This document shows, one piece after another, positions 36 to 31,775 of a stretch of DNA of 32,000 bases. The stretch is from Candidatus Lokiarchaeum ossiferum (GTDB taxonomy: Archaea; Asgardarchaeota; Lokiarchaeia; Sigyniarchaeales; Promethearchaeaceae). The stretch covers positions 990,001 through 1,022,000 of the forward strand of contig CP104013.1 of assembly GCA_025839675.1 (NCBI GenBank), read 5' to 3'. A model generated the notes under the pieces. That model was not told the DNA's origin. It was given only the letters and a program-made list of their open reading frames with translations, and searched no databases. The translations under genes and the position numbers were made by a program. The stretch's first letter is position 1, and each line of letters starts with the position of its first letter.

Positions 36-407
36 ATGGGAAGTATTACAGATATATTAGAAAAAGATGAAGAATTAAGAAAAGCTAAACATGAATTGAA
101 AGAAACGAAGCAAATTTTTAAGCAAGCAAGTGAAAAATTTATTATCCAATACTTCGGAGGTCTCTTATCGAAAATGTTAGATAAAGAGGTAAAATCATCC
201 CAAGGATTAATATATTTATGCCTTAAAGAAGCATTTAACAACAATAACAAGATAAAATTAGATTTCGCAAGCCTTAAGGAGATCTTTTTTAATAATTTGG
301 ATGAAAAATTAATTTCATTAAATTTCACTAACCATGATTTAATTATTAATTCGCTTATTGATGAATTAAGACAACATCAATCATTATTGATGATGATGAA
401 CATATAG
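36..407 (+). CDS. Hypothetical protein, possibly 5'-truncated by the window edge
   Basis: ORF with ATG at 36. The same frame stays open back to nt 3 (..FANKWTEKLQN-MGS..), so the gene may start upstream of the window. The N-terminal part is charged and coiled-coil-like (EKDEELRKAKHELKETKQ). No domain recognised. Confidence 0.4.
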   Translation: MGSITDILEKDEELRKAKHELKETKQIFKQASEKFIIQYFGGLLSKMLDKEVKSSQGLIYLCLKEAFNNNNKIKLDFASLKEIFFNNLDEKLISLNFTNHDLIINSLIDELRQHQSLLMMMNI

Positions 408-421
408 AGTGTGAGAAACTA

Positions 422-1171
422 TTGACAGATATATTAACTATAGTAGTAATGGGGGCAATTTTCTTAGCAATATTAAGTGCTTTCAGTTTAGGACTTTTTA
501 TGACAATAAAAGCACTTCAAACTGAATACTATGATATAATTTATTATGGAATTGGTATTTTCTGTATGGGTTTACTCTATATATTTGAATTAAGTGGTTT
601 GAGATTTTTTCAAGAAACTGTAAAAGTCATTGGATTGTTCTTCTTCTTAATATTTTGCAAGAAAAGCTTTTATAATGAAAAATCACCAACTGTTTTCACT
701 CTCCTATATATATATCATTTCATCCTTCTTTTTATTAATCCAATTTTGAGTTTAAACTATGATAGATTTGCCATTATAATTAATCTCTTTTTTGGTTCCA
801 GTTTAATGTTTATTTTTTTATTAATCTCTATTGGAGCATGGGTCGACTATAAGAAAATAAAAGTACTAAATGTTGAACCTTTTCTTAAGATAAGATATTT
901 ATTAGTCAGTATGGCGAGTTTTCTATTTATAATAACTGGTAGTTCAATTATAATTGGGCACATTTTCCGTAAATATGGTAGTGATAACATTTATAATGTG
1001 ACAGAATTGATAACTATTTTTTCAGCACTTTTGGCTTCTATAGTTTTTTATTTAGCATTTGTAGGACCGAAGAAATTTAGAAAAATCTTTAATCGAACAT
1101 ATAAATCAATAGATATAGATTACAATGGCTTTATCGAGCAGGAAATAATAGGAGATTTATTAGATAAATAG
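422..1171 (+). CDS. Polytopic membrane protein, unknown function
   Basis: 249-aa ORF with a TTG start at 422 (alternative ATG at 449). Several long hydrophobic segments (IVVMGAIFLAILSAFSLGLFM, GIGIFCMGLLYIF, IGLFFFLIF, LLFINPILSL, LMFIFLLISIGAW, MASFLFIITGSSIIIG, IFSALLASIVFYLAF). No catalytic motif recognised. Confidence 0.6.
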   Translation: MTDILTIVVMGAIFLAILSAFSLGLFMTIKALQTEYYDIIYYGIGIFCMGLLYIFELSGLRFFQETVKVIGLFFFLIFCKKSFYNEKSPTVFTLLYIYHFILLFINPILSLNYDRFAIIINLFFGSSLMFIFLLISIGAWVDYKKIKVLNVEPFLKIRYLLVSMASFLFIITGSSIIIGHIFRKYGSDNIYNVTELITIFSALLASIVFYLAFVGPKKFRKIFNRTYKSIDIDYNGFIEQEIIGDLLDK

Positions 1172-1185
1172 AAAAATCAATTCCA

Positions 1186-2058
1186 TTAATATAATGGAGG
1201 GTTTTTTTGCAGTATTAGATTTTTTTGAAAAATGGTGAAAATGCTTGTTTTAAAAATTGAAATGCCTTGGTCAATTGGGACTAAATCCAATACTTTATTT
1301 AATATTTGTTGATTTAAAAAGTCGTTTGAGTATTTCTCTTTATCCAACCCAGGATCATATTTATGCAAGAACAAATTCAATTCAATTTTTAATTTATCTA
1401 CGTGAATATTTTTTAATATAATTTCAAAATAAGATAGAGATTCTTCATAGCGATCAGTATCTTGAATATCTAATACATAGATTATTTTGTCTATGTTTTC
1501 TAGGACTTCATCAGGTTTATTTGTGAATAAATCGCGATAAACAACTTGTCCTCCAAATTCATGGTATATTACCTCAGGTCTATATTTGAATTCCATATTA
1601 AGATCATAAAGGATAGAAGACATATGCTGTTTTCCTTCAGTGGGTTTTAAATTCTGATTAATAAATGCAAGTAGATTTTTTTTACCTAAAAAAGAAAGCA
1701 AAATTGAAGTTTTCCCACTTTTATCTAATCCCATTAGAAGAATGTTTTCTTGGTTTTTAGTTTTTTTTGAAAAAAGAGACTCTTGAGTGGAAATAAACGA
1801 TTCTAAATTTTCAAAAAGGGAATAAATTTGTTTATTCCTTACCATTATATATTTCCGCGTTCCAGATTTTTTAGAACTAATAATTCCTGCATTTTTTAGG
1901 ATTTTTATTTGTTTAAAGGTAGTAGATCGACTACGCCCTATTTTTTGCTCAAGTTCTCCAATAGTTAGTGTACCCTTCTGAAGAACCGATAAAATTTCGA
2001 ACCTTGTCTCATCTCCAATAATTTTGATTAGCTCTAACAGCTGCTGATTGTTGTTCAT
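1186..2058 (-). CDS. ArsR/SmtB-type winged-HTH fused to an Arf/Arl-like small GTPase
   Basis: The N-terminal ~90 aa look like an ArsR wHTH (IGDETRFEILSVLQKGTLTIGELEQKIGRSRSTTFKQIKILKNAGIISS..GTRKYI). The C-terminal part aligns by eye with Arf: G1 ILLMGLDKSGKTSIL (Arf ILMVGLDAAGKTTIL), switch I PTEG, G3 HEFGGQ (Arf WDVGGQ), IIYVLDIQDTDRY (Arf LIFVVDSNDRER) and G4 LHKYD (Arf NKQD). Confidence 0.85.
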   Translation of the reverse strand: MNNNQQLLELIKIIGDETRFEILSVLQKGTLTIGELEQKIGRSRSTTFKQIKILKNAGIISSKKSGTRKYIMVRNKQIYSLFENLESFISTQESLFSKKTKNQENILLMGLDKSGKTSILLSFLGKKNLLAFINQNLKPTEGKQHMSSILYDLNMEFKYRPEVIYHEFGGQVVYRDLFTNKPDEVLENIDKIIYVLDIQDTDRYEESLSYFEIILKNIHVDKLKIELNLFLHKYDPGLDKEKYSNDFLNQQILNKVLDLVPIDQGISIFKTSIFTIFQKNLILQKNPPLY

Positions 2059-2111
2059 TTTTCTTAACTTTTTTTTCTATATTATATTAAACTATTTCAA
2101 TATATATAAAT

Positions 2112-2150
2112 GATTCGGACATTTAATGTTGTGAGATCTCGGACATTTAA
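2112..2150. promoter_or_regulatory. Two direct repeats GAT(T/CT)CGGACATTTAA upstream of the wHTH-GTPase gene, a candidate operator
   Basis: GATTCGGACATTTAA lies at 2112-2126 and GATCTCGGACATTTAA at 2135-2150, with the TCGGACATTTAA cores 24 nt apart. A weaker third copy, TCCGAAACATTTA, lies at 2242-2254. The repeats are next to the A/T box TATATATAAA (2101-2110), 43-52 nt upstream of the start codon at 2058. Confidence 0.35.
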
Positions 2151-2311
2151 AAATATTATTTGATTTCAAACAAAAATTTTCCAAAAAATAATAGAAAATT
2201 CATAAATATATAAGGATCTAAATATGTCATATGTTCGAGAGTCCGAAACATTTATATAATCTAATTGATATGAAATATTTATGATTAGAATTTTTTTTAA
2301 AAAAAACTGGG

Positions 2312-3250
2312 ATGAAAATGATGAACACAATAGATGTAGAATTAAAACAATCAGAAACAAATGATAAAAACAATCCAATAAAAGGTAAGAAGCTAGATTC
2401 AAAAATGAATGTCTGGTCATTCTTTTTGATTACTTATTTAATAAGTTGGATTTTATGGCTTCCTGGGATTCTAAGAACATTTGTCCTTCCTGATATTTCA
2501 AGAGGGTTAGTAGAAGGATTAGCTATGTTAAGCACAATTGTTCCCAGTTGTGTTGGATTGGCTTTCATCTTCAAGGAAAATGGAAAAGAGGGACTTGTCC
2601 AAGTTTTGAAAAAATCTTTCGATTTTAAACATTACAAATGGTTACTCCCATCCTTACTTATCTACTTGGCACTTATAGTAATAAGTCACTTAATCAATCT
2701 CATAAGAAAAGTTCCCTTTCCTGTTGGTTATATATGGCAGGAATGGTGGATGATAATACCTCTCTATATTTTAATGTTAATTATTGGTGGTTCGATTGGA
2801 GAAGAATTTGGATGGAGAGGATATGCAGTCCCTGAACTACAAAAACAATTTAATGCCTATACATGTGCTCTTATAGTAGGGTTTCTCTGGGCATTTTGGC
2901 ATATTCCCACTTTCTTTATTGATGGCGCCAATCAAAGGGATGAAGGATTACCATTTATTCCGTATGTAATAACACTTGTTTGCTTTACGATTATTATGGT
3001 ATGGCAAATAAATATTTCAAAAAGTAGTTTAGTCCCTGCCTTTACACTACATACTTTGATTAATATTACAAACGAATTTTTTCCAATCCTAAATACTGAT
3101 ACGGGAGATTATAGTGCTTGGATCATTATTGATGTACTTTTAATTTTGTGCTGTATCCTAATTCCACTATTTTATCGAGTTGATAATTTTCAAAAACGAA
3201 AAAAAAGTCAATCAGATGACCCCCTTTCTGTCTCAAAAGAACTACAATAA
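2312..3250 (+). CDS. CPBP family (CAAX-protease/Abi-like) intramembrane metalloprotease
   Basis: Signature motifs EEFGWRGY (motif 1, EExxxR) and FLWAFWH (motif 2, FxxxH), plus a later histidine region (FTLHTLIN), embedded in multiple TM helices. Confidence 0.85.
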   Translation: MKMMNTIDVELKQSETNDKNNPIKGKKLDSKMNVWSFFLITYLISWILWLPGILRTFVLPDISRGLVEGLAMLSTIVPSCVGLAFIFKENGKEGLVQVLKKSFDFKHYKWLLPSLLIYLALIVISHLINLIRKVPFPVGYIWQEWWMIIPLYILMLIIGGSIGEEFGWRGYAVPELQKQFNAYTCALIVGFLWAFWHIPTFFIDGANQRDEGLPFIPYVITLVCFTIIMVWQINISKSSLVPAFTLHTLINITNEFFPILNTDTGDYSAWIIIDVLLILCCILIPLFYRVDNFQKRKKSQSDDPLSVSKELQ

Positions 3251-3311
3251 CGATATTTACAAATGAAAATGAAAAAAAAATACAAAAAAAAAAAAAAACG
3301 GGAAAACAAAA

Positions 3312-4106
3312 ATGAATCAAATATTAGAATCAAAAATGAATGTAAAGGGACAAAGAAACCCAAAAATTGTGGCTATTTGTGGTAGTCCTCGAAAAGGTCT
3401 AACGAAAAAAGCTTTAGATCAAATGAGAGATCTTTATCCTGATATTAACTTGAAAATACTCATGCTTAAAGATCTCTCATTAAAACCTTGCCTTGGTTGT
3501 TATTCGTGTGTTTTAAAAGGAGAAGATCGTTGTCCCTTAAAGGATGACCGAAAAATCATTTTGCAAGATATGATTGATGCAGATGGAGTTATTTTCGCAT
3601 CCCCTGTCTTTGTGAATACAATTACTGCCATGATGAAAAATTTCTTTGAAAGATTAGGATATCTTGCCCATAGACCAGTCTTCTTTGAGAAATATGCAAT
3701 GGTCATGTCTGTCTGTGGAGGATTTGGAACGGAACCAGCTAATAAATATATGCAAGATATTGCCCAATCTTTTGGTTTCAACGTGGTTAATTCTTTGGAA
3801 TTAAAGTACTCATCAAGATCAGAAAAGGAACATAATTATAATCTACAATTCATCAAAAAAGCGATGGTTGATTTATTAAATGGAATTAACACTCAAATCA
3901 AAACCAAACCCACAATAACTCAAGTAGTGATGTTCAATCTCTTTAAGTATATTTCATCTGTGAAAAAAGACTATTTTAGCGCAGACTACGAGTACTATAA
4001 GAGTAAATCAGGATTCTTTGATGAGAGAAAAATCAATTTCTTTTATAATTGGATCGCTAAACAACAAATTAAAAAATTTAAGAAAGATTTTGTTCAAAAT
4101 CGATAA
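3312..4106 (+). CDS. Iron-sulfur flavoprotein (Isf)-like NAD(P)H-dependent FMN reductase family protein
   Basis: Flavodoxin-like start IVAICGSPRKG (FMN_red-type GSPR motif). Compact cysteine cluster CLGCYSCVLKGEDRC (C-x2-C-x2-C-x7-C), as in methanogen Isf proteins. An alternative start at 3336 (MNVKGQ) is possible. Confidence 0.8.
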   Translation: MNQILESKMNVKGQRNPKIVAICGSPRKGLTKKALDQMRDLYPDINLKILMLKDLSLKPCLGCYSCVLKGEDRCPLKDDRKIILQDMIDADGVIFASPVFVNTITAMMKNFFERLGYLAHRPVFFEKYAMVMSVCGGFGTEPANKYMQDIAQSFGFNVVNSLELKYSSRSEKEHNYNLQFIKKAMVDLLNGINTQIKTKPTITQVVMFNLFKYISSVKKDYFSADYEYYKSKSGFFDERKINFFYNWIAKQQIKKFKKDFVQNR

Positions 4107-4130
4107 AAATAAAAACTTAAGGAGATTAAA

Positions 4131-4964
4131 ATGAAAAAATCACACTCCACGTCATATACCACCATCCCATGGCCTAAAATTCGAACATTTGTAACCGATT
4201 ATTTAGAAATGGGGATGAAGAAACACAACGTCCATGGTTACGGAGAAATTAATGTTACGGTTCCAAAATCAATCATTAAAACGATTTATGCCGAAACTAA
4301 TGAGAAAATTTCATTCACTGCATATTTTGTACATTCTCTAGCAAAAGCAGTTGGAGAACACAAAATGATGCATGCGATGAAACGCAAGAACAAATTAGTA
4401 ATTTTTGATGATGTTGATGTGGTCACGATTATCGAACGAGATATCAATGGGATGAAGTATCCACAATCTCATATCATTCGAAAAGCTGATAAGAAAACCC
4501 TAAGAGAAATTAATGATGAAATTCGTTCCGTTCAACAAAACCCCTCTCCTCAAAATGGATTCAAAAAACTAGACAAATTTGTGCAATTACCTCGCTTTAT
4601 ACGACGAATGCTCTGGAGATATCTCATGAACCATCCGAAGAAACAAAAAGAATCAATGGGAACCGTGGGGGTGTCATCAATTGGAATGTTCTCACGACAA
4701 AAAGGTTGGGGAATTCCAATTGCACTCCCTACTCTTAGTTTTACTCTAGGAGGAATATATCAAAAAAAATTTTCATCAAGGGATTCTAAACATAATTCTC
4801 AATTTGAAAATCAACTCTGTTATACAATGACAGTGGATCATGATATTATCGATGGTGCTCCTGCTGCGCGCTTTGTAACCCGATTAAGCAATATAATTGA
4901 AGACGCAGAAAGTCTTCAAACTATTTCTACCAAGATGATAGTTCCAAATTTTTTTGTAAAATAA
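4131..4964 (+). CDS. Stand-alone 2-oxoacid dehydrogenase E2-type acyltransferase catalytic domain protein (no lipoyl domain)
   Basis: C-terminal active-site signature MTVDHDIIDGAPAARFV (the DHxxxDG motif of the E2/CAT-like fold). Its 277 aa is the size of a catalytic domain only. AAGGAG lies 8 nt upstream of the ATG. Confidence 0.8.
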   Translation: MKKSHSTSYTTIPWPKIRTFVTDYLEMGMKKHNVHGYGEINVTVPKSIIKTIYAETNEKISFTAYFVHSLAKAVGEHKMMHAMKRKNKLVIFDDVDVVTIIERDINGMKYPQSHIIRKADKKTLREINDEIRSVQQNPSPQNGFKKLDKFVQLPRFIRRMLWRYLMNHPKKQKESMGTVGVSSIGMFSRQKGWGIPIALPTLSFTLGGIYQKKFSSRDSKHNSQFENQLCYTMTVDHDIIDGAPAARFVTRLSNIIEDAESLQTISTKMIVPNFFVK

Positions 4965-4970
4965 TTTAAC

Positions 4971-5837
4971 GTGATGAAAATGCAAATTGAATTTAAAAAT
5001 AATAAATCTGATACACAGAATAAAGTGGTTTTATCCTCGATTTTGTATATTTTTTCAGGAACAGGCAATTCGTTAAATGTTGCCCTGAAAATTAAAGAAA
5101 AAATGCCCGAATTCAAAATTATATCAATAGTTGATGCCTATGAAGCCAAAGAATTTGAAATCAAGGCTTCCAAAATCGGATTTGTGTTTCCAGTCTATTT
5201 TTTAGACATCCCAAATATTGTAAAGAAATTCTTTAAAAAAATGAATATCATTGGAAACCCCTATATTTTTACCATTGCAACGGCTGGAGGCAAAATTGGA
5301 AGAACTTTTAAAACTATCAGCAAAATACTCACCAAAATCGATCGAAAGATGGATGCAGAATATGGTGTAATTACTCCAGGTAATTCGATTGTTATGATAG
5401 ATGAAACAGATACTAATGAAGAAAAGGAATTGAAATTAACGACTTCACGGCAAAGAATAGAGGAGATCATAAAGTCAATAAGAATCAATGAAAAAATATC
5501 TTTTCCAACTAAAAAGCGCACATTTGGGGAATTAATGTTGTCAGTTTCAGGAAAAATATTTCTTTACCGAGTATTTAGCGATAGACTATTTCGGGTCGAT
5601 AAAGAATTATGTAAACAATGTGGAACTTGTGAATCCGTTTGTCCGATGCATAATATTAAATTGATAAACGGAAATCCGACATGGAATCGAAACTGCGAGT
5701 GTTGTGCCGCCTGTCTTCATTGGTGTCCGCATCAAGCCATCAATAATTTGAATACAAAAGGTGTCTCCCGGTATCATCACCCAGAAATATCTCTAAAGAA
5801 AATGAAATCGTTTAGTGAGGGCGTGAAACATGAGTAA
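4971..5837 (+). CDS. EFR1-type flavodoxin-like / 2x[4Fe-4S] ferredoxin fusion protein (paralog 1)
   Basis: N-terminal flavodoxin-like motif IFSGTGNS. C-terminal CKQCGTCESVCP and CECCAACLHWCP cluster motifs. GTG at 4971, ATG at 4974. Confidence 0.8.
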   Translation: MMKMQIEFKNNKSDTQNKVVLSSILYIFSGTGNSLNVALKIKEKMPEFKIISIVDAYEAKEFEIKASKIGFVFPVYFLDIPNIVKKFFKKMNIIGNPYIFTIATAGGKIGRTFKTISKILTKIDRKMDAEYGVITPGNSIVMIDETDTNEEKELKLTTSRQRIEEIIKSIRINEKISFPTKKRTFGELMLSVSGKIFLYRVFSDRLFRVDKELCKQCGTCESVCPMHNIKLINGNPTWNRNCECCAACLHWCPHQAINNLNTKGVSRYHHPEISLKKMKSFSEGVKHE

Positions 5838-6642
5838 CAATAATAACATCAATAGTAAAGAGACCCTTTTGTTTGTTTTTTCAGGAACGGGAAATTCTTT
5901 GTATGTGGCGCAAAAAGTCCAATCTCATCTCACCCATAGTCGCATAATTTCGCTCTCAAAAGCCCTAAGCGAACAGAAATTGGAATGGTCTGCACCTCAA
6001 ATCGGGTTTATTTTCCCCGTGTACTTCCGAGATATTCCCCATGTGGTGGAAAAATTCTTAAAGAATATTTCTATTAAAGATAATCCCTATCTATTTGCTA
6101 TCGCCACAAATGGGGGTGAAGGGGGTCATCCCTTCAAGCTTATGAATAAAATTCTTCACAAACAAGAGAAAAAACTTAATGCAGGATTTTTACTTGCAAT
6201 GCCCCAAAATTCAATTGTGGGTGTTGATAAATTGCATAAACACGAAGAAATAATCCAAATTCTGGATAGCTCAGAAATGGTGATTTCAGATATTATTGAA
6301 TGTATTCTTCAAAACCAAGAGAATCAAAAGGATTTTGTGAAACCTACACTATCCAATCGCATGATGGCTTGGGGAGGGAAATTCTCTATGTTTCGAGTTC
6401 TTAATGATCGGAAATTTCGGGTGGATGAAGAAAAATGCATTGGATGTGGAATATGCCAACGAGTGTGTCCCATGGAAAATATCGAATTAATTGACAAGAA
6501 ACCAAAATGGAACCATAATTGCGAGTGCTGCACTGCTTGTATTCATTGGTGTCCACGTCAAGCCGTAGTGAATGTAGGGACCGAAGGAAAACCGCGATAT
6601 CATCATCCTGAAATTTCAGTAAAGCAAATTAGCTCCTATTAA
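5830..6642 (+). CDS. EFR1-type flavodoxin-like / 2x[4Fe-4S] ferredoxin fusion protein (paralog 2)
   Basis: Same architecture as the upstream gene (VFSGTGNS, CIGCGICQRVCP, CECCTACIHWCP, shared PRYHHPEIS tail). Collinear with it along the full length. The start overlaps the upstream stop by 8 nt. Confidence 0.8.
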   Translation: MSNNNNINSKETLLFVFSGTGNSLYVAQKVQSHLTHSRIISLSKALSEQKLEWSAPQIGFIFPVYFRDIPHVVEKFLKNISIKDNPYLFAIATNGGEGGHPFKLMNKILHKQEKKLNAGFLLAMPQNSIVGVDKLHKHEEIIQILDSSEMVISDIIECILQNQENQKDFVKPTLSNRMMAWGGKFSMFRVLNDRKFRVDEEKCIGCGICQRVCPMENIELIDKKPKWNHNCECCTACIHWCPRQAVVNVGTEGKPRYHHPEISVKQISSY

Positions 6643-14648: not shown

Positions 14649-15353
14649 ATGGACTCAATACAATCATATCAGAAACAAGCACGCGCAAGCGGAATACTTT
14701 TCTTAATGGCAATCCTTACGGGAATTATTGGCGCAGTCCTTTTCGGAGGTCTTTCCAATTTTGGAGCCGATATTACCCAGTTTTCGGAAAATCGATTGAA
14801 GATACTCTTTGGCAGCTTCATGATACTATTAATGGGGATAGCATGCGCCAGCATTGCAATTCCATTATATCCAATAATGAAAAAACAAAATCAACCAATG
14901 GCACTCGCAGCTGTAAGTTTTCGACTTTTAGAAAGTGTGTCTCACATCTTTAATGTTATACTTTTCTTAGTTTTATTAAATCTCAGTTCTGAATATGCTG
15001 CTTCCGAGGTATCGAATCAATCCTACTATGTGATTTTAAATTCTACTCTAAGTGATTTAAGTGATTCCCTTTCACTAATCGGAACAATTTGTTTTAACAT
15101 TGGAGCATTGATGTATAGTTTAATAATTTATCAAACCAAACTTCTTCCAAGATGGATGGCAAGCTTTGCTCTAGTTGGCATCTTTTTAGCCTTGATGAAT
15201 CAGATTCTCGTGTTCTTCGGTGTATACACAGATTCTAGTATTATTGCAACAATGTTTCATCTTCCGACATTAGTTTATGAATTAATTTTCGGTTTCACAA
15301 TGGTGATAAAAGGATTTAATGTAGAAGCTATTCAGCAGTTGGATCAAAAGTAA
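14649..15353 (+). CDS. DUF4386-like integral membrane protein
   Basis: 234 aa. It begins with ..ARASGILFLMAIL.. and ends with ..YELIFGFTMVIKGFNVEA, and contains a mid-protein LLPRWM segment. This matches my recollection of the DUF4386 pattern. About 6 hydrophobic helices. Confidence 0.65.
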   Translation: MDSIQSYQKQARASGILFLMAILTGIIGAVLFGGLSNFGADITQFSENRLKILFGSFMILLMGIACASIAIPLYPIMKKQNQPMALAAVSFRLLESVSHIFNVILFLVLLNLSSEYAASEVSNQSYYVILNSTLSDLSDSLSLIGTICFNIGALMYSLIIYQTKLLPRWMASFALVGIFLALMNQILVFFGVYTDSSIIATMFHLPTLVYELIFGFTMVIKGFNVEAIQQLDQK

Positions 15354-19231: not shown

Positions 19232-20365
19232 TCAATTTCTATTAAGGTGATTTGAGGATTTACGAATGAGCAATCTACCTTTAATTTTTTTTTCGCACAT
19301 CTTGGAATCGGGATTTTTTATAAGATTGAACAATATTAAAGCAGCTTGATGTCCAATTTCGTACGTAGGTTGTGAAACTGTTGTAAGAGGGATTGGAAGA
19401 TGTGCGGCGAACACGCGATCATCAAACCCTATTACGGAAAAATCTCTCGGAATTGAAATTCCCCTTTCTAATCCTATTTTTATAACTAATTCCGCGATAG
19501 AATCGTTTACTGCAGCAATTGCAGTTGGACGTTTTGATTGTGGTATGTCCAGTAATAGATCAAATAAATAATTAATGGCTCGATGTTCAATATCTAAATC
19601 GGGTTTATAATCTGAAGGTATGTTTGCAATATCTTCTTGAAAATATAGATGTTTGTCCAATAATGGTACTTTATGATCGATATGAGCTTTGCAAAAGCCC
19701 TCATACCTTTCTAGCTCGGATGAAATTGAATATACAGATGTTCCTACAAAAATTATTTTCGAATGTCCTAATTCTAACAAGTGATTTGTGATCTCATAAT
19801 ATCCCGAATGGTTATCAGTCCAAATAATTGGAAAATCGAGTCCGGAAATTTTCCGATCTATTAAAACTAATGGAAATTTCTGGATGAGTAAACTACTATA
19901 TAATTCCATGTTGATTGGAGAATCTGAGGGATATAATATAATGCCCTTAGAACCACGTTTAATAAGATCTAAAATTACTTTTTTTTCCGAATCAAGATTT
20001 GCGGTGGTTTGGTGAAATGTAACAAAGTAGTTTTGAGTTTTTGCCACATCTTCAATACCCTTCAAGAAATTTTGTTTAAAATTCTCATCATATGGGAGAA
20101 CTAAGGATATGATATCAGGTGAAGAAGATGCTGTGACGAGGCTTTCACCGTAATTCTTGGCATATGATCCACTTCCTTGTATTTTCTTGATAAATCCATC
20201 TTGTTCAAGATCATTCAGCGCCCTAATTACAGTAATTCGACTTACTTTGAACTTTTTTGCAATTTCCATCTCAGTAGGTAATTTTTCCTCAGAGGCAATA
20301 ATTTTCGCAAGAATTTGTTCCTTATAAAATTCGTAGATTATTTCATATTTAGGTTTCTTGGACAT
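19232..20365 (-). CDS. AraR-like chimeric regulator: GntR-type wHTH plus a LacI/GalR-type (PBP1) sugar-binding domain
   Basis: N-terminal GntR pattern (KLPTEMEIAKKFKVSRITVIRALNDLEQDGFIKKIQGSGSYA). It is followed by a LacI-type periplasmic-binding fold (ISLVLP.., GIILYPS, IIFVG, AIAAVNDSIA, VIGFDD). I placed the start at ATG 20365. A GTG at 20374 is the ORF-track start. Confidence 0.8.
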   Translation of the reverse strand: MSKKPKYEIIYEFYKEQILAKIIASEEKLPTEMEIAKKFKVSRITVIRALNDLEQDGFIKKIQGSGSYAKNYGESLVTASSSPDIISLVLPYDENFKQNFLKGIEDVAKTQNYFVTFHQTTANLDSEKKVILDLIKRGSKGIILYPSDSPINMELYSSLLIQKFPLVLIDRKISGLDFPIIWTDNHSGYYEITNHLLELGHSKIIFVGTSVYSISSELERYEGFCKAHIDHKVPLLDKHLYFQEDIANIPSDYKPDLDIEHRAINYLFDLLLDIPQSKRPTAIAAVNDSIAELVIKIGLERGISIPRDFSVIGFDDRVFAAHLPIPLTTVSQPTYEIGHQAALILFNLIKNPDSKMCEKKIKGRLLIRKSSNHLNRN

Positions 20366-20429
20366 TATTAGCACATCCTTTGAGATTTTAATTTAAAATG
20401 CAAATAAAGTAATTTAACAAGCTATATAA

Positions 20430-20445
20430 ATTTGATATATCAAAT
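20430..20445. promoter_or_regulatory. Perfect 16-bp palindrome ATTTGATATATCAAAT in the regulator / GH38 divergent promoter, a candidate AraR-like operator
   Basis: ATTTGATA and TATCAAAT are exact reverse complements. The site lies 65-80 nt upstream of the regulator start, next to the TATA-like GCTATATAAA (20421-20430). Confidence 0.5.
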
Positions 20446-20508
20446 ACGTTTTGAAAAGTCAAAATAATGGACTATAACTGTGCTAAGTGGAACAAAAGAA
20501 AAACATAT

Positions 20509-20527
20509 ATATGTTGATATAACATAT
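20509..20527. promoter_or_regulatory. Second operator-like palindrome ATATGTT-GATAT-AACATAT
   Basis: 7-bp arms at 20509-20515 and 20521-20527. Contains GTTGATATAAC, related to the TTGATATATCAA core. Confidence 0.35.
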
Positions 20528-20544
20528 TAATTAATATTTCAGAA

Positions 20545-20557
20545 GTTGATATATCTA
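20545..20557. promoter_or_regulatory. Third TTGATATATC site just upstream of the GH38 start
   Basis: GTTGATATATCTA lies at 20545-20557, 23 nt upstream of ATG 20580. Confidence 0.3.
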
Positions 20558-20579
20558 ATTTAATCAGTTGAAAAAAATA

Positions 20580-23500
20580 ATGATCAAAAAAGAAATTTAT
20601 CTCGTTCCATATGCACACTTAGACACCCAGTGGCGTTGGGAATATCCAACTACCATCAAAAAATATATTAAGAACACCATTGAAGAGAATTTGGAGTTAT
20701 ACAATAAATATCCTGAACATAGTTTCAACTTTACTGGTGCTATTCGCTATTCCATGATGAAAGAATATTACCCGGAGAAATTTGCAAAGATCAAGCAACT
20801 TATTGCCGACGGACGCTGGCATATAGCTGGAACTTGTCTTGATGAAACCGATGCATTGGTTCCTTCTGTTGAATCCATGATCAGGAATATTCTATATGGT
20901 GACCGTTGGGTTAGGAAAGAATTTGGAAAAACAAGTAAAGATTATATGATCCCAGATTGTTTTGGATTTCCTGCGAATATGCCGAGTGTTTTAACCCATT
21001 GTGGAATTCAAGGGTTTTCGAGTCAAAAATTGACTTGGAATTCAGCAGTTGGAATACCCTTTGAAATTGGTATTTGGAAAGGTCCAGATGGTGCGGAATT
21101 AGTAAGTGCATTAAACCCAAGAGCATATGTATCTCAACTTTTCCGGATGGTTCAACACAATAAGAAACGATTAGCTCATCTCCAAAGATTAGGATTAAAA
21201 AACGGGATATGGAAATCCTTTCAATACTATGGTGTTGGCGATATTGGTGGAGCCCCTAAAGAAGCATCTGTCAGAAATGCAATAAAAAGTATGAAAGCAT
21301 CAACTGATGAATTAACTGTAAGACAAGGAGCAGCAGATCAATTTTTCATTGAGATTACTGAACAAGAAAAGCAAAAAATGGATGAATATACCGGAGATCT
21401 CTTACTGATCAATCATAGTGCGGGGACACTTACCTCAGCTGCAATTATGAAACGGTGGAATCGAAAAAACGAACAACTTGCTTTTGCTGCAGAAACTGCT
21501 GCAATATCTGGAACTCTCGTAGCGGGAGCAGTTTATCCCGCTGAAAAAATTAGATCTGCATGGCATCGCATGATTGGTAATCAAATGCACGATATTTTAC
21601 CCGGAACTTGCACCCCAACAGCGTATTTATATTCACAAAACGATGAAGTCGTTGCTTTAAACACTTGGACGTCTGTTTTAGAAGATGCAGCAACTGCAAT
21701 AGCGCCTTATATTCCAGGAGATGGATCAATTCTGTTATTCAATCCTCTTGGTGAATCCCGAAATGAGGCTGTTGAAGTTGGAATTGACCTTCCTGAACAA
21801 ATTTCAAGCGTTAATATTTCAATATATGATTCAGAGGGTACTTCCTTTCCTGCTCAGTTCAAAAAGTATGAAAATGGAAAATGTTCTGCCATTTTCTCCC
21901 CAAAATTACCTCCTTTCAGCTGGAAAAGATATTCTTTTGATATCAATGAAACTAATTCAAACACCAATAATTATAATTCAATTCGAATTGAGACCACAAA
22001 AGAACAATTTTGCTTGGAAAATACATTTTATCGAGTACAAGTCACTCATAAGGGTAAAATTGAATCTATCTTCCATAAAAAGCTGGAAAAAGAACTTTTG
22101 AAAAAACCTCTGGCTTATGAATTTCAGAAAGAAAAGCCGAGAGCATTTCCATCTTGGAATATGGATTGGAATGACCGAAAAAAACCCCCTTATCAGAGAA
22201 TTGAAGCTGGAGACACAGTTTCTATATTAGAGAATGGTCCTATTCGATGTACACTCCAAATTACAACTAATTTTAATAAATCTGTATTTGTAAAAGAAAT
22301 TTCTCTGAGTCAAGATTCGGAAGTTGTCGAATTTACTGAGCGTATCAAGTGGAGAGAACTGGGTTGTTCTTGTAAATTTGCTCTTACAAGTAATATAGAA
22401 AATTCTGAAGTAACCTATAATTGGGAAACATCTCGAATCAAACGAGGTCTCAATAATCCGAAATTATATGAAATGCCTTCTAGGCTATGGGTAGACGTGA
22501 GCGATCAAGATTGGGGAATATCCTTAATGGAAGATTCTAAATTTGGGTATGATCATCCTGCGGATGACACATTGCGAATGACGTTGATCTACACCCCAAG
22601 CACCCGTCTATTTAATGGATTTCGAGATCAAAAATATCACGATTGGGGAGAACACGTGATAAGATATGGTATTTATGGCCATAAGGGAGATTTTAGATCA
22701 ACAGACATTATGGCTCGTAGTTTTAACCAGCCAATTCGTTCATTTGCTATAAAAGACGAGATCTCATCTTATAAAAAAGATGAATTTTCTTTATTAGAGG
22801 TTTCATCGAAACAAATTGGAATAACTGCTGTAAAAAAATCCGAAGATAGTGATGGGATCATCATTCGCTTGTATGAACGATTTGGAAAAGAAGCGAATGC
22901 AACAATAAGTATTACATTCCCAACTTTAAAAATTGCTTCTGTTTGGGAAGTAGATGGTCTTGAAGAAAAGATTCGTAATACCGATCACACAAAAACCTCG
23001 TTCAAAGTACAAGTCCCCGCGAATGGTATTCGTTCATATCATCTAATCCTTCAAAATGATCAAAAATCTCCGAAAATATTGCAAAGTGTGGTAAATCTTG
23101 ACTACAATTATCGAATGATTAGTAAAAATCATGAAGTACAAGGGTTATATCCAAATGAATTAGTTCCATCTCACATCCAGGCGGGAAATATATTATATCA
23201 GTTAGTGAAGGAAAAAAACTTAAATTCAGTGCGATGCAAAGGACAGGTAATTTCTCTTCCTCATGAATACAATACCCTTTCAATTTTAATTGCTGCAGAA
23301 GAAGAATGCAAAGGAACTTTTACATGGAGAAATTCGAAGGGAGAAGATTTTCAATCAACAATATCTTCAATCCCATCAATGACCAAAAAAGTAGGTTTGT
23401 GGGATACCCGGATATGGAAGAACCCTCCAAAACACTCCAAAAAATTCAAACGAGACTATATTTGGTATAATAAATGTATTGGAGTTGAACCGGGTTTTAT

Positions 23501-23726
23501 CAATCGAAATCGCTTGGAATGGTATTCGACTCATACTCACCAAAATGGAGAAGATCAATACTATCAGTACGGTTATATGTATTCTAAAAAACTTGATATA
23601 CCTACAGATGCTCAACAACTCATTCTTCCAGATGATGGACGCATCTTTATCTTTGCAATCACTGCATCTAATCAAATTGTACGAGTAAATAGCACCCAGA
23701 AACTCAATGATTCTTATGATTTTTAG
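20580..23726 (+). CDS. GH38 alpha-mannosidase (large, apparently cytoplasmic)
   Basis: The N-terminal metal-site motif VPYAHLDTQWRW and the nucleophile-region motif MIPDCFGFP (DxFG) are present. The length is about 1050 aa and there is no signal peptide. ATG is at 20580, and the ORF track starts at TTG 20568. Confidence 0.9.
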   Translation: MIKKEIYLVPYAHLDTQWRWEYPTTIKKYIKNTIEENLELYNKYPEHSFNFTGAIRYSMMKEYYPEKFAKIKQLIADGRWHIAGTCLDETDALVPSVESMIRNILYGDRWVRKEFGKTSKDYMIPDCFGFPANMPSVLTHCGIQGFSSQKLTWNSAVGIPFEIGIWKGPDGAELVSALNPRAYVSQLFRMVQHNKKRLAHLQRLGLKNGIWKSFQYYGVGDIGGAPKEASVRNAIKSMKASTDELTVRQGAADQFFIEITEQEKQKMDEYTGDLLLINHSAGTLTSAAIMKRWNRKNEQLAFAAETAAISGTLVAGAVYPAEKIRSAWHRMIGNQMHDILPGTCTPTAYLYSQNDEVVALNTWTSVLEDAATAIAPYIPGDGSILLFNPLGESRNEAVEVGIDLPEQISSVNISIYDSEGTSFPAQFKKYENGKCSAIFSPKLPPFSWKRYSFDINETNSNTNNYNSIRIETTKEQFCLENTFYRVQVTHKGKIESIFHKKLEKELLKKPLAYEFQKEKPRAFPSWNMDWNDRKKPPYQRIEAGDTVSILENGPIRCTLQITTNFNKSVFVKEISLSQDSEVVEFTERIKWRELGCSCKFALTSNIENSEVTYNWETSRIKRGLNNPKLYEMPSRLWVDVSDQDWGISLMEDSKFGYDHPADDTLRMTLIYTPSTRLFNGFRDQKYHDWGEHVIRYGIYGHKGDFRSTDIMARSFNQPIRSFAIKDEISSYKKDEFSLLEVSSKQIGITAVKKSEDSDGIIIRLYERFGKEANATISITFPTLKIASVWEVDGLEEKIRNTDHTKTSFKVQVPANGIRSYHLILQNDQKSPKILQSVVNLDYNYRMISKNHEVQGLYPNELVPSHIQAGNILYQLVKEKNLNSVRCKGQVISLPHEYNTLSILIAAEEECKGTFTWRNSKGEDFQSTISSIPSMTKKVGLWDTRIWKNPPKHSKKFKRDYIWYNKCIGVEPGFINRNRLEWYSTHTHQNGEDQYYQYGYMYSKKLDIPTDAQQLILPDDGRIFIFAITASNQIVRVNSTQKLNDSYDF

Positions 23727-23800
23727 TTTTCTGGTTTTTAAAGATATTTTTTTCTAAAACAAAATAAGTATAAACAAAAACATTAAAAAAGTGAAAAACT

Positions 23801-25225
23801 ATGACATCCAATACAGTAATGGAAATTTCTGAAGTTATTCCAAGGAATAAAGAGTATCGGAAACAAATTTTGAATTATATTACAATAAAGATCCCTTTTG
23901 GGCTTATTCCAGGAGTATTTTCTATGATATATATTTATTTCTTCTGGGATTATCTGGGCTTAAATCAAACTCTGTATAACATTGCAATGATTATCTATGC
24001 TTTGTTTAATGCTCTAAATGATCCTCTCTTGGGTCAATGGAGTGATCGGATAGATATCAAAAAATGGGGATCCCGAAGATTGATTTTCATCAAATATGGT
24101 GGACCATTGTGGGCCATTATTTTCTTTTTTATGTGGTTCCCGTGGAGTTATGATAATCAAATCATTATTTTCCTCCATTTCGTTATTGCTTTGTTCTTTT
24201 TTGATAACATGCTCTCCTTAGTAATCATCGTATGGGATGCATTATTGCCAGAAATTGCAGAAACATATGAAGATCGCAACAAAATCTTCTTTTGGGCAGG
24301 AATTATTGGGACGATTGCAAGTATTCCGGTTCTTTTTTCAATCACCTTGGTGCAAAATAACCCCATTGGTTTTCGGATATTTACTGGAGTGATTGCTATT
24401 CTTTCTATAATTATTTTTTATGTTACTGCGTCAAATTTAAAGGAAAAACCCGAATATCACCAAGAAAATAATACCCCGGGAGTGATTCAATCTTTAATTC
24501 AATGTTTCAAATCCCGCGGGTTTGTAATCTTTACCTTGTATAGATTTTTCCGTGTTATTACCGAGACAATGCTTTTTTCATTTATTTTTATCTATTCCCT
24601 TCTCTTTCCTACGGGATGGGAAACAATTCTCTTAGTCGCTTTAACAATTGCAGGGATGTTGGGAAGTTGGATCTTTGTGAAATTATCGGAAAAATATGAA
24701 ATGCAATCTCTAATTATGTGGGGAAGATTTCTGGAAATCTTGATCTCTATAACAGCATTCTTTTTTAGTATTCAGGCAGGATTGGATATTATTTGGTATT
24801 CATTATTTTTTATAAAACTCGTGTTGGGAGGCTATATTGTTTTTATGAATCCATATATTTATCTGGTTGCAGATGAAGATGAAATCAAATATGATACTCG
24901 GCGTGAAGGAATGTTTCTAGGAACAAATGCAATCTTCAACAAAATTGCTGAAAGTCTGGGTCCAATTATTGCTGTTGGTATTTTGGTGGCTTTTGGTTAT
25001 TTGAACAATGCTCCTGAAGGCTATATCCCTTCTGAACAAGCGTTCTTTGGTATAAAATTTTTACTTTTAATTATGCCATGCATATTTGACCTCTTAGGTA
25101 TGATAGTCTTACATTTCTATCCAATCAAAGGAGAAAGACTGAAAGAATTACAAGAAAAAATTCATTTATTGCATGAAAAGAAGAAAAAAGAGTATCTGGT
25201 TAAGCAATCAGAGGAAGTTATATAA
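23801..25225 (+). CDS. MFS transporter of the glycoside-pentoside-hexuronide (GPH):cation symporter type
   Basis: About 12 hydrophobic helices. The loop 2-3 motif NALNDPLLGQWSDR matches the GPH signature (D-P-x-x-G-x-x-S-D-R). Confidence 0.8.
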   Translation: MTSNTVMEISEVIPRNKEYRKQILNYITIKIPFGLIPGVFSMIYIYFFWDYLGLNQTLYNIAMIIYALFNALNDPLLGQWSDRIDIKKWGSRRLIFIKYGGPLWAIIFFFMWFPWSYDNQIIIFLHFVIALFFFDNMLSLVIIVWDALLPEIAETYEDRNKIFFWAGIIGTIASIPVLFSITLVQNNPIGFRIFTGVIAILSIIIFYVTASNLKEKPEYHQENNTPGVIQSLIQCFKSRGFVIFTLYRFFRVITETMLFSFIFIYSLLFPTGWETILLVALTIAGMLGSWIFVKLSEKYEMQSLIMWGRFLEILISITAFFFSIQAGLDIIWYSLFFIKLVLGGYIVFMNPYIYLVADEDEIKYDTRREGMFLGTNAIFNKIAESLGPIIAVGILVAFGYLNNAPEGYIPSEQAFFGIKFLLLIMPCIFDLLGMIVLHFYPIKGERLKELQEKIHLLHEKKKKEYLVKQSEEVI

Positions 25226-25255
25226 GCAATTGGAAAGGAGAGAGAGATAAGGACG

Positions 25256-26230
25256 ATGTATATTGTGGGAGTGGATGGAGGGGGTACCAAAACAAGTGTG
25301 ATAGTGTTTCGTGCAACAGGAGAATGTTGTGGTATGCGAACCAACCCCTTTTCATCCAGTATCGATTCTGCACCCATAGAAATTGTCCATCGACAGATAG
25401 AACAAGCAATTATAGACCTTATTCCTCAAACACAAGAAAAAATTTATTTAGCCGCTATTTTTTTAGGAATGGGGGGGATAGTTTCCCCTACTGATGCTGA
25501 GCTTGTCCGATCCTTAGTTCAATCATGGTCAATTTGTACCCCTTCCACCATTATTCAAGTCAAGAATGACATATATAATGCACATGCAGCCGCTTTGCTT
25601 GGAAAACCGGGAATTTGTTTCATTATCGGCACCGGGAGTGTTGGATTTGGAATTAATGAGAATGGGAATGAACATCGGGTAGGTGGATATTCTTTCAAGG
25701 AAGGAGATCCGGGAAGTGCATATCATCTAGGACGATTGGGGCTCAAAAACCTTGCTAAAGCATTAGATAAGCGGATCCCATTCACGCCTGTTTTGAAGGC
25801 TATACAAGATCACTTCAACATTCTAGGGTATATTGGGTATGTTAATATCATCAACAGTATCTCGCGAGAAAAAACGGCCCAAGTCGCAAAAATAATAACC
25901 AAATATGCCGAGGTAGGAGATGAACTTGCCATACAATTAGTTGATTTAGCAGCAGATGAAATAGTACTAATGTTTAGGGCAATAATCGCAACTCTGAATA
26001 TACAGAATCAAGAAATCGCTATTGTTGGAAGTTTGGGAACCCGCAATTCTGAGTTTAAGACCAAAATCTTTGAAAAACTTGCTAAAGCGGCACCTCTATA
26101 TAAAATTTTTTCATCAAAGTGGGAACCAGTGGTAGGTTCTGCCATTCTTGCCTTCCGATCTATCAACAATGAAAATTACCAAGATTATTTGATCTCAAAT
26201 TCTAAATTAATTCAAGATAGGAGGAAATAG
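25256..26230 (+). CDS. BadF/BadG/BcrA/BcrD-type ATPase, N-acetylglucosamine-kinase-like sugar kinase
   Basis: N-terminal phosphate-1 motif YIVGVDGGGTKT and a later IIGTGS motif (ASKHA fold). 324 aa. A GGAGAGAGAG-rich RBS-like region lies upstream. Confidence 0.75.
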   Translation: MYIVGVDGGGTKTSVIVFRATGECCGMRTNPFSSSIDSAPIEIVHRQIEQAIIDLIPQTQEKIYLAAIFLGMGGIVSPTDAELVRSLVQSWSICTPSTIIQVKNDIYNAHAAALLGKPGICFIIGTGSVGFGINENGNEHRVGGYSFKEGDPGSAYHLGRLGLKNLAKALDKRIPFTPVLKAIQDHFNILGYIGYVNIINSISREKTAQVAKIITKYAEVGDELAIQLVDLAADEIVLMFRAIIATLNIQNQEIAIVGSLGTRNSEFKTKIFEKLAKAAPLYKIFSSKWEPVVGSAILAFRSINNENYQDYLISNSKLIQDRRK

Positions 26231-26232
26231 AA

Positions 26233-27981: not shown

Positions 27982-27997
27982 CCTGAGTGAAATATTT

Positions 27998-31217: not shown

Positions 31218-31775
31218 CTATGACTCATATTTTCGTTGACAATTGGGACATATTCCATGAGTTAGTTTAATTCCATGTTCAGAAGTCAAATATTCCGAAA
31301 TTCGATCCCAATATCCATCATCTTTTCTTACGCTAGAACACCATGAGCATATGGGTACATATTTCTCAAGAATACTCATTTTCTTATTATTCTCGATTTC
31401 AGCTAATTTTCGCGCATGCACATCTACACAACTTCCAATATAACCCTTGAAAAGACCGTTTTCATCAAAAAAAGGAGCACACCGATCAAAAATCCACCGA
31501 TATTCACCATCATGCCTCTTCAAACGGTATTCCATCTCAAATGCTTCCTTTTTTTCAAAAAACGAAATGTATGTTCCAACACATCCATCAAAATCATCAG
31601 GATGTACACCTTCTGTCCATCCATCACCTATTTCTTGATCAAAAGATCTTCCCGTAAATTTAAGCCATGTTTCATTAAAATAATTACATTTTTTACTCAG
31701 ATCAGATCTCCAAATCAGAATAGGGGATTGTTCAACAATGGTTTCAAGTTCGGAATAAGATAATTTTTCGACCAA
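31218..31775 (-). CDS. PAS-domain protein with a C-terminal CxxC...HGICPxC cysteine module
   Basis: PAS S-box features are present (PILIWRSD..., NETWLKFTGRS, GVHPDD, EYRLKRHDGEYRW, GYIGSCVDV). The C-terminus is ICSWCSSVRKDDGYWDRISEYLTSEHGIKLTHGICPNC. The TTG start is preceded by AGGAG with an 8-nt spacer. Confidence 0.8.
   Translation of the reverse strand: MVEKLSYSELETIVEQSPILIWRSDLSKKCNYFNETWLKFTGRSFDQEIGDGWTEGVHPDDFDGCVGTYISFFEKKEAFEMEYRLKRHDGEYRWIFDRCAPFFDENGLFKGYIGSCVDVHARKLAEIENNKKMSILEKYVPICSWCSSVRKDDGYWDRISEYLTSEHGIKLTHGICPNCQRKYES

Follow-up and report, generated by a model that had tools for sequence, protein, structure and literature searches.

A 32,000-nucleotide (nt) stretch of the genome of the Asgard archaeon Candidatus Lokiarchaeum ossiferum (GenBank assembly GCA_025839675.1, contig CP104013.1, positions 990,001 to 1,022,000), which we call the window and number from its first letter, holds a gene whose product joins a winged helix-turn-helix (wHTH) of the ArsR/SmtB type to a small GTPase. 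The open reading frame (ORF) lies on the minus strand at 1186..2058, runs uninterrupted from an ATG over 290 amino acids (aa) to its stop codon, and encodes a protein 100% identical to NEF87_000796 (UYP44511.1) of this organism; the start codon is supported because the N-terminus aligns with homologues. The wHTH occupies residues 1-95 (1774..2058), a linker residues 96-103 (1750..1773) and a GTPase domain of the Rag/Gtr family residues 104-290 (1189..1749). A first-pass annotation made from the letters alone had described an ArsR-type wHTH fused to an Arf-like GTPase and had named such GTPases as a hallmark of Asgard archaea. The host is indeed an Asgard archaeon and both domains do sit in one polypeptide (Pfam HTH_5 at 34.8 bits, Gtr1_RagA at 61.7 and Arf at 39.9; profile matches to SmtB at E 1e-9 and to Asgard Rag-like GTPases at E 6e-16), but the Arf label does not stand. 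Databases call the fusion 'hypothetical', 'HTH arsR-type domain-containing' or, in RefSeq, 'ADP-ribosylation factor-like protein', and a second L. ossiferum paralogue, NEF87_002160, is named 'metalloregulator ArsR/SmtB'; the labels 'hypothetical', 'Arf-like' and 'metalloregulator ArsR/SmtB' are each partly misleading. The 16 closest homologues of NEF87_000796 are 35-45% identical to it, and the homologue search found no orthologue above 45% identity.

The N-terminal domain scores as the wHTH it had been taken for: it passes the Pfam HTH_5 cutoff of 22 bits over residues 16-62, reaches 27.0 for HTH_20 against a cutoff of 27, and lies slightly under the cutoff of the NCBIfam 'metalloregulator ArsR/SmtB' model (52.8 bits against 55). 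In a profile search of the PDB the alignment to SmtB spans residues 5-86, and the best non-GTPase matches are ArsR/SmtB regulators at E 1e-9 to 1e-5. The AlphaFold 2 (AF2) model, which was built from a 16-sequence alignment and has a mean predicted local distance difference test (pLDDT) score of 73.5, gives the element order α1-α2-α3-α4-β-β-α5 at pLDDT 78-90, with helices at residues 3-14, 17-26, 33-40, 44-56 and 76-95 and strands at 60-65 and 68-73. Foldseek matches this part of the model to SmtB, BigR and CzrA with template modelling scores, TM(target), of 0.70-0.76, and both fold and element order are the same as in the ArsR/SmtB metalloregulators (SmtB 1R22/1R1T, CzrA, BigR, HlyU). The recognition helix, approximately residues 44-56 (RSTTFKQIKILKN), belongs to a family-wide pattern, S-x-S-T-x-S-Q-x-L-K, that is conserved throughout the fusion family. 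What the domain lacks is the means to bind metal. There is no Cys in the whole 290-aa protein, and its only His residues (145, 166, 219 and 232) are all in the G domain; the metal or metalloid ligands of ArsR/SmtB proteins, Cys in α3/α3N and Asp, His or Glu in α5, are absent from the wHTH. A metal-sensing ArsR reading was therefore rejected: with neither Cys nor His, the wHTH cannot sense metal in the classical way and must take some other input.

The nucleotide-binding motifs quoted in the first-pass annotation are all present, read on the minus strand: G1 or P-loop GLDKSGKTS at residues 110-118 (1705..1731), PTEG of G2/switch I at 139-142 (1633..1644), EFGGQ of G3/switch II at 167-171 (1546..1560) and HKYD of G4 at 232-235 (1354..1365). 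To these can be added G5, TSIFT at residues 271-275 (1234..1248), which is of the Rag type T-S-I-[YFW] and aligns with TSIYD of RagC and with RagGtr reference sequences. Across the 16-member clade of fusion homologues, G-L-x-x-S-G-K-T-S of G1, Thr140 of switch I, Glu167, Gly169-Gly170-Gln171, His232-Lys233-x-Asp235 and the G5 residues are invariant, and the invariance of Thr140 and of the G1-G5 motifs implies a working nucleotide pocket. G3 keeps the Gln at the catalytic position while having Glu for the canonical Asp; of the 70 distinct fused forms introduced below, nine have ExxGQ and 59 DxxGQ. The interswitch (residues 143-166, 1561..1632) carries an insertion of about ten residues, which contains the conserved motif K-H-M-x-E-I-L with an invariant His145. 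This insertion in the switch I/interswitch region had been noticed earlier, and it is both real and clade-specific: the spacing from G1 to G3 is 50 in the window protein and 48-55 in its clade, as against 40, a value that hardly varies among 135 further relatives, be they fused, split or standalone. The linker, variable in the homologue alignment and modelled at pLDDT 53-55, joins α5 of the wHTH (76-95) directly to strand β1 of the G domain. An interface between the two domains is not predicted, because switch I (residues 126-144) and the insertion score below 50.

On the agreement of five kinds of comparison (Pfam, PDB profile, Foldseek, reference sequences and a tree), the G domain is a member of the Rag/Gtr (RagGtr) group of Asgard archaea and eukaryotes. 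In Pfam, Gtr1_RagA matches residues 106-274 and outscores Arf, which matches residues 100-236, and the same holds for 10 of 10 fusion homologues scanned; a better score to a non-Arf family, the very outcome that the first-pass annotation had set as refuting its reading, removes Arf as the family label. A G-domain profile of ten family members, searched against the PDB, finds LokiRagO (8YL2, E 2.5e-27) and LokiRagM (8ZLA, E 2.9e-21) at the top and then RagC, RagA, RagD, Gtr1 and Gtr2 over the whole domain (3e-11 to 5e-7), whereas Arf3p and Arl3 (about 3e-7 to 1e-6) match over the first ~120 positions only. GerdArfR1, a true Asgard Arf (8OUM/8OUN), scores 29 bits (8oun_A) against 98.9 for LokiRagO (8yl2). 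Foldseek places LokiRagO (8YL2, entitled 'RagA-like small GTPase from Asgard Lokiarchaeota (LokiRagO)'; 8ZLA is entitled 'LokiRagM') at rank 1 and GerdArfR1 at rank 20, with Gtr1 and RagA above Arf/Arl. LokiRagO, LokiRagM and RagGtr are thus the closest G domains by sequence and fold, and the fusion family has GLDxSGKTS, a DxGGQ-type G3, HKxD and TSI[YF] in common with LokiRag.

The reference sequences agree. Published work separates true Asgard Arf (ArfR) from an 'ArfL' group unrelated to Arf and from 'RagGtr' (bioRxiv 10.1101/2024.02.28.582541; PMC11914678), and uses RagGtr for the Asgard and eukaryotic Rag/Gtr GTPases together (Vargova et al., bioRxiv 10.1101/2024.02.28.582541; Tran et al., PMC10933270). 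In Table S3 (bioRxiv 10.1101/2024.02.28.582541), Helarchaeales proteins of ~180 aa with FLHKFDP and the tail IFKTTIYTIFQK are RagGtr, as are standalone ~180-aa relatives of our family with the tail IFKT[ST]IYT[IV]FQK, and the ArfL proteins carry NKQD. Against these references, BLAST of the window G domain gives E 6e-39 to 8e-11 for RagGtr and 0.07-0.6 for ArfL; an ArfL assignment was rejected on E values of 0.07 and 0.59 to NVM27612/NVM28297. A rough neighbour-joining tree without support values nests the fusion family among the RagGtr references, with ArfL and MglA outside, so that this tree too puts it in RagGtr; the same rough tree interleaves fused, split and standalone forms of the GTPase. 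The HKYD of G4, earlier taken for a non-canonical NKxD, is the normal Rag G4 (HKVD in RagC, HKYD/HKFD in Asgard RagGtr). HKxD is found in 67 of the 70 distinct fused forms, a count in which the search pattern mis-scored the window protein at an upstream NKPD, its true G4 being the HKYD at 232.

These results bear on the proposal that an Arf-family GTPase, from the membrane-trafficking lineage, was fused to a transcription-factor domain. Its attractions are that the Arf profile passes the Pfam threshold, that G1 has the GLDxxGKT of Arf and that RefSeq names the protein accordingly. Membership of Arf/Arl/Sar nevertheless failed on a G4 that is not NKxD and on an Arf profile match that ends at residue 236; the family profile in turn matches Arf over no more than the N-terminal ~120 positions of the domain, and G5 is TSI[FY]. 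The N-terminal amphipathic helix and the myristoylated Gly2 of Arf proteins are absent too, because the N-terminus is the 95-residue wHTH and residue 2 is Asn. With Gtr1_RagA higher in every member tested, we consider an Arf origin very improbable.

The family differs from canonical Rag proteins in what surrounds the G domain. LokiRagO, LokiRagM and the RagGtr group, like RagA-D and Gtr1/2, have a C-terminal roadblock/longin-type domain or consist of a single domain, and the studies cited describe none with an N-terminal DNA-binding domain. The window protein, by contrast, has its ArsR wHTH at the N-terminus, nothing at the C-terminus, the G3 Glu and the ten-residue interswitch insertion. No C-terminal roadblock domain is found: the protein stops 15 residues after G5, and the AF2 model contains nothing past residue 285. 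Members of this RagGtr subfamily, fused, split and standalone alike, all terminate 8-16 residues past G5, which leaves scant room for a normal C-terminal α5 helix; in its place AlphaFold draws a short strand of low confidence.

The fusion is not peculiar to L. ossiferum. A word-indexed search returned 16 full-length fusions and then standalone GTPases of ~180 aa, and an exhaustive search of 1.84 billion representatives returned about nine clusters at 50% identity that span both domains. In three clusters (P0078, P0082 and P0127) two tandem ArsR wHTH domains precede the GTPase, a single-chain pseudo-dimer, and these variants suggest that two wHTH per functional unit, that is a wHTH dimer, are required. 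Three distant clusters (P0079, P0081 and P0083) have replaced the Gln at the catalytic position of G3 (GGK, GGD and GGS, in an ExxGG context) and may be hydrolysis-dead versions that only bind nucleotide. For the genomic comparison, 160 loci from GTDB genomes and JGI metagenomes were combined with five from look-ups of the encoding contigs and with the window; L004, which repeats L003, was left out, and 161 loci gave a scorable match. The two domains are fused in 83 of these (70 distinct sequences) and encoded by adjacent split genes in 16, while 62 have the GTPase alone. In the split loci, whose neighbourhood is that of the fused ones, a separate ArsR gene (104-111 aa) comes first and a separate GTPase gene (179-187 aa) second; the ORF listings of L145 and L074 show a stop at the end of the ArsR ORF (104 and 111 aa) and the GTPase ORF after it in another frame. 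This Rosetta-stone pattern of fused versus adjacent genes argues that the two modules work together.

The hosts are metagenome-assembled genomes (MAGs) of Promethearchaeota/Lokiarchaeia, Helarchaeota, Thorarchaeota, Hermodarchaeota and Hodarchaeota. Contig DATKTW010000054.1 (L009), which carries a fusion, and the DATKTP01... contigs L020, L027, L034 and L070, which carry the GTPase only, come from MAGs labelled Nanopelagicaceae and Deferrimicrobium, and a response regulator discussed below is likewise labelled Nanopelagicaceae; such 'bacterial' contigs with Asgard-type members are most likely mis-binned Asgard contigs. The same survey speaks to whether the window gene could have arisen from faulty annotation or assembly, or be a functionless paralogue in decay. 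The absence of a close orthologue and the presence of a second paralogue in the genome would fit that view, which is set against an ORF intact in two independent L. ossiferum assemblies (6.04 and 6.27 Mb), an architecture repeated in the 83 loci from independent MAGs, nucleotide-binding motifs that are all conserved and a synteny with Hodarchaeota, described below, that has been kept. We find it hardly credible.

Operator-like sequences lie in the 253 base pairs (bp) between the fusion gene and a divergent gene that starts at 2312. The upstream repeats reported in the first-pass annotation are real, and consist of two exact 12-nt direct repeats, TCGGACATTTAA, at 2115..2126, next to the fusion gene's TATA-like box, and at 2139..2150, 24 bp from the first. 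An imperfect palindrome, AAATGT-N13-ACATT in the minus-strand reading, lies at 2125..2148, ~90 nt upstream of the ATG, and is a clade-conserved candidate operator. The fusion promoter module, a site plus TATA-like box (GTCCGAATCATTTATATA, 2103..2120, minus strand, 45 nt before the ATG), is mirrored by GTCCGAAACATTTATATA (2241..2258, plus strand, 54 nt before the ATG at 2312); together they form an 18-nt inverted repeat that is 94% complementary. Both divergent promoters, read gene-wise, contain GTCCGAAnCATTTATATA, a GC-rich site abutting the TATA-like box, where an archaeal B recognition element (BRE) would lie. TCGGAC occurs six times in the 32-kb window, three of them inside this intergenic region. 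Matches to TCGGACATTTAA with up to 2 mismatches are not enriched elsewhere in the window (6 against 5.6 expected), and the 32 kb yield no additional regulon members; a scan of the window for sigma-70 promoters and intrinsic terminators was uninformative, as it would be for an archaeon.

A related element recurs in relatives, specifically in a paralogue clade 44% identical to the window gene. AAATGTYY is present at 2.3 copies per region upstream of a fusion, whereas 68 control upstream regions from these loci average 0.015, and AAATGT-N11-13-ACATT lies upstream of six of the seven clade members and only once elsewhere in 82 kb. Other branches have the same kind of layout with other sequences. 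In the Hodarchaeota locus L003 a 27-nt element beginning AATATTAGAATATYCTAATAT, with the internal palindrome ATTAGAATATYCTAAT, is found at 3676-3702 and 3951-3977, its copies standing at both ends of the divergent intergenic region beside TATA-like boxes, as in the window. A further upstream motif, CGATAT repeats or ATCGCGAT, is common to the main clade, where 19 of 57 regions have it, and to the split operons, where 10 of 16 do, against fewer than one expected. Inverted repeats that overlap a gene's own promoter are typical of autoregulated ArsR repressors, and the operator-like repeats here overlap the fusion's own promoter in the same way, although the candidate half-sites are spaced more widely than the classical 12-2-12.

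On the other side of the intergenic region lies a tightly packed five-gene operon on the plus strand (2312..6642), a candidate target. It encodes an Rce1-like CPBP protease of the type II CAAX prenyl endopeptidase family (2312-3250), a flavin mononucleotide (FMN) reductase (3312-4106), a 2-oxoacid_dh-type acyltransferase (4131-4964) and two flavodoxin-like/4Fe-4S proteins, tandem paralogues with an 8-nt overlap (4971-5837 and 5830-6642). Control of this operon by the fusion would follow from the promoter module that the two have in common. The acyltransferase has a homologue, 40% identical to it, close to the fusion paralogue P0009 as well (L005:8253-9209). Eukaryotic Rce1 processes small GTPases with CAAX tails; the fusion GTPase ends ...QKNPPLY and has no CAAX box, so the adjacency of an Rce1-like protein is probably coincidental.

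Downstream, two plus-strand genes converge on the fusion gene, one for a 123-aa protein (36..407) and one for a 249-aa protein which by hydropathy has ~7 transmembrane segments (422..1171); neither has a Pfam family. Homologues of both lie in the same layout beside the Hodarchaeota fusion P0015 (L003/L004; L003:4875-6445), with tblastn E values of 1e-22 and 6e-17 and identities of 39% and 27%. In L003 the homologue of the 123-aa protein forms the C-terminal part of a 249-aa protein. The second L. ossiferum paralogue NEF87_002160 and its orthologues have another setting, in which a divergent ABC-2 transporter precedes the fusion and the genes for a polytopic membrane protein of 279 aa and a double-PAS protein of 424 aa follow it; homology between this 279-aa protein and the ~7-transmembrane protein of the window was considered and rejected (BLAST E 0.016; hhalign probability 0.1%). 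A histidine kinase with a roadblock/longin regulator was not found beside the window GTPase, whose neighbours are the ~7-transmembrane protein, the 123-aa protein and the CPBP-flavoprotein operon.

The wHTH might be a dimerisation or protein-docking module that replaces roadblock and serves non-transcriptional, for example membrane-associated, signalling: canonical Rags dimerise through the C-terminal roadblock domain that is missing here, ArsR domains are obligate dimers, the ~7-transmembrane protein is a conserved neighbour, and the recognition helix of the window protein differs from the rest of its clade at three positions that are otherwise nearly invariant. The conservation of the recognition-helix signature across the family and the locus-specific palindromes at promoters argue against such a role, and we judge it distinctly unlikely.

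The remaining genes of the window show no link to the fusion; they include TetR and GntR regulators, dehydrogenases, a GH38/MFS locus and a PAS protein. The last of these, a standalone protein of 185 aa, is encoded at 31218-31775, 29 kb from the fusion, and PAS proteins adjoin paralogues elsewhere. A DUF4386 protein at 14649-15353, 12 kb away, may be a coincidence; another (L002:3964-4608) is the immediate divergent neighbour of a fusion paralogue. The sugar-utilisation locus at 19232-30559 comprises a GntR/LacI-type regulator, two GH38 alpha-mannosidase-like proteins (1052 and 871 aa), an MFS transporter, a BadF/BcrA-type ATPase that resembles N-acetylglucosamine kinases and a 582-aa ORF (26233-27981) without a Pfam family.

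Most other members of the family are embedded in a signalling cluster. In 86 distinct fused or split loci a divergent Lrp/AsnC-type regulator lies upstream in 61, a large membrane protein follows directly downstream in 47 and a protein of ~298 aa comes next in 38. By their Pfam matches, the membrane protein is a MASE3-PAS-HisKA-HATPase sensor histidine kinase and the ~298-aa protein a response-regulator receiver (REC) followed by an unannotated C-terminal domain of ~150 residues; L013:4933-8113 is one example, and L074, L010, L014 and others have the same order of divergent Lrp/AsnC-type regulator, ArsR-Rag GTPase, kinase and response regulator. The response regulator is highly conserved and abundant, with more than 120 clusters at ≥72% identity. 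No Pfam family was found for its C-terminal domain, which in a model of pLDDT 82.4 has the order β-β-α-β-β-β-α-α, presumably a longin topology. A profile of this domain matches only the N-terminal (longin) region of C9orf72 in the PDB, at a non-significant E of 0.38-1.2; the match is collinear over ~133 residues, with WDDkxGP on WDNILGP, and pairwise hhalign gives it 40% probability. The model suggests a 'receiver-longin response regulator', which we treat as a lead that is still unconfirmed. Canonical Rags act in TORC1 signalling as an oppositely loaded heterodimer with Ragulator, GATOR and FLCN; the window encodes no partners of this kind, and in the main clade the longin-like regulator is no more than suggestive of one.

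Another possibility is that the protein works as CodY does, as a sensor of GTP level, with the G domain reporting cellular GTP/GDP, little hydrolysis and no dedicated GTPase-activating protein (GAP) or guanine nucleotide exchange factor (GEF). Nothing next to the window gene encodes a kinase, a response regulator or a longin protein, its clade has Glu for the G3 Asp, the distant clusters named above have lost the catalytic-position Gln, and eukaryotic Rag GTPases are known to report nutrient status. The invariance of Gln171 and Thr140 in the clade argues instead that hydrolysis and switching are retained, and the kinase/response-regulator cluster surrounds most family members. Such a sensor is in our view unlikely.

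We lean, with some reserve, towards a one-polypeptide transcription factor that is controlled by its G domain, switched by GTP/GDP and autoregulated. The analysis shows the two folds with their families, nucleotide-binding motifs that are conserved, fused and split gene arrangements that recur, and operator-like motifs particular to each locus. DNA binding, autoregulation, the choice between repression and activation and the coupling to nucleotide state are points that we infer from sequence, structure prediction and comparative genomics. In this scheme an ArsR-type wHTH has lost its metal ligands and the Rag/Gtr G domain has assumed the role of sensor. The protein would dimerise through the ArsR α1/α5 interface, and the dimer would bind the AAATGT-N13-ACATT and TCGGACATTTAA sites, which lie against the TATA-like boxes in the promoters of the fusion gene itself and of the divergent CPBP-flavoprotein operon. 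The nucleotide state of the two G domains would then alter the geometry or the affinity of the wHTH dimer, by way of switch I/II or of nucleotide-dependent contacts between the G domains, so that transcription would track GTP versus GDP loading. On the most economical reading the G domain has taken the place of the lost metal site as the allosteric input to the ArsR dimer; helix α5, to which it is joined, is the dimerisation helix through which classical ArsR effectors act. ArsR proteins repress by default, and the candidate site overlaps the BRE and TATA-like box. Loading in turn would be set by partner sensors, which for most members may be the adjacent MASE3-PAS kinase and the REC/longin-like response regulator and for the window's clade PAS and polytopic membrane proteins.

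Several observations weigh against this interpretation. The G3 Asp that coordinates the Mg-bound water is a Glu in the window's clade, no kinase or response regulator adjoins the window gene, and the AF2 model is only moderate in confidence, which is lowest in switch I and the insertion. The operator motif was defined post hoc, after inspection of these regions, and the six loci that carry it amount to only about two lineages that are independent, one being the window and the other a single group of orthologous paralogues. In addition, the Hodarchaeota recognition helix is nearer to that of the paralogues than the window's is, yet its locus is without the AAATGT motif; the assignment of motif to protein is consequently not secure, and another factor could bind the sites.

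Known systems resemble the fusion in part. Compared with ArsR/SmtB regulators, it has 190 residues of GTPase appended to α5, where classical members end, and no α3N/α5 ligands. The nearest analogues at the level of the system, the actinobacterial G-protein systems or conservons (CvnA-D, Mfp), combine a histidine kinase, a roadblock MglB-like GAP, a CvnC/DUF742 GEF and an MglA-like GTPase (PMC13621833, PMC13343842, PMC4316618, PMC11343762). The main clade is similar in that its operon couples a small GTPase of the Ras superfamily to a membrane sensor histidine kinase and a candidate regulator of the longin/roadblock type; the window gene itself has no kinase or response regulator beside it. Unlike in conservons, the GTPase is RagGtr and not MglA-type, the DNA-binding output is fused or adjacent where conservon outputs are indirect, and the putative regulator domain shares its chain with a receiver, which would imply a genuine phosphorelay. 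For Group 3 MglA, an adjacent protein of REC and wHTH has been proposed on bioinformatic grounds to link the GTPase to transcription (Wuichet and Sogaard-Andersen, PMC4316618); that system is bacterial and of the MglA family, with the wHTH on a separate receiver protein and no ArsR domain. Neither conservons nor Group 3 MglA systems have a GTPase of the Rag type or one joined to a wHTH in a single chain. CodY, too, is a winged-helix factor whose DNA binding responds to guanine nucleotide, and its wHTH gives weak matches to the window protein, but it senses GTP through a non-homologous GAF-type domain, with neither P-loop nor hydrolysis.

The Asgard GTPase papers searched mention GTPase fusions to roadblock or longin and extensive domain shuffling. 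We found no description of an ArsR-GTPase fusion in the Asgard small-GTPase and LokiRag literature searched, nor any wHTH peptides of this kind in the texts; for the one supplement among them, a truncated copy, the negative is weak evidence. The fusion probably allows direct control of genes by a GTP/GDP switch, and in the literature searched we found no account of Rag-type GTPases used in this way.

One may speculate further that Asgard Rag GTPases are mainly the output switches of sensory phosphorelays that act on DNA, which we think rather doubtful for the chain as a whole. A MASE3-PAS kinase would phosphorylate a receiver-longin regulator, whose longin domain would be a phosphorylation-gated GAP or GEF for the ArsR-Rag GTPase, and the latter would turn promoters on or off; in the window protein, as a diverged paralogue, other inputs (PAS or 7-transmembrane) would have taken over. 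If so, the chain would correspond, in hard-wired prokaryotic form, to the eukaryotic axis that runs from longin/roadblock regulators (GATOR1, FLCN-FNIP, Ragulator) through Rag GTPases to the transcription factors TFEB/TFE3, and the control of transcription by nutrients or signals, rather than membrane trafficking, would be the ancestral job of the Rag lineage.

Discussion of Asgard small GTPases usually treats them as precursors of membrane trafficking in eukaryotes. Here a sizeable subset of the Rag/Gtr group is tied physically to a DNA-binding domain, and most of its members also to a two-component sensor, which makes a widespread candidate link between Asgard Rag-type GTPases, two-component signalling and transcription and corrects the database labels. 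The system is tractable: cultures of L. ossiferum exist, the protein looks soluble and is small, a specific candidate operator lies 50-90 bp upstream and nucleotide-locked mutants are easily designed. A Ras-superfamily GTPase that controls a transcription factor within one chain would, if confirmed, be a new type of one-component regulator, and it would inform the origin of the links between Rag, longin and transcription factor in eukaryotic nutrient signalling.

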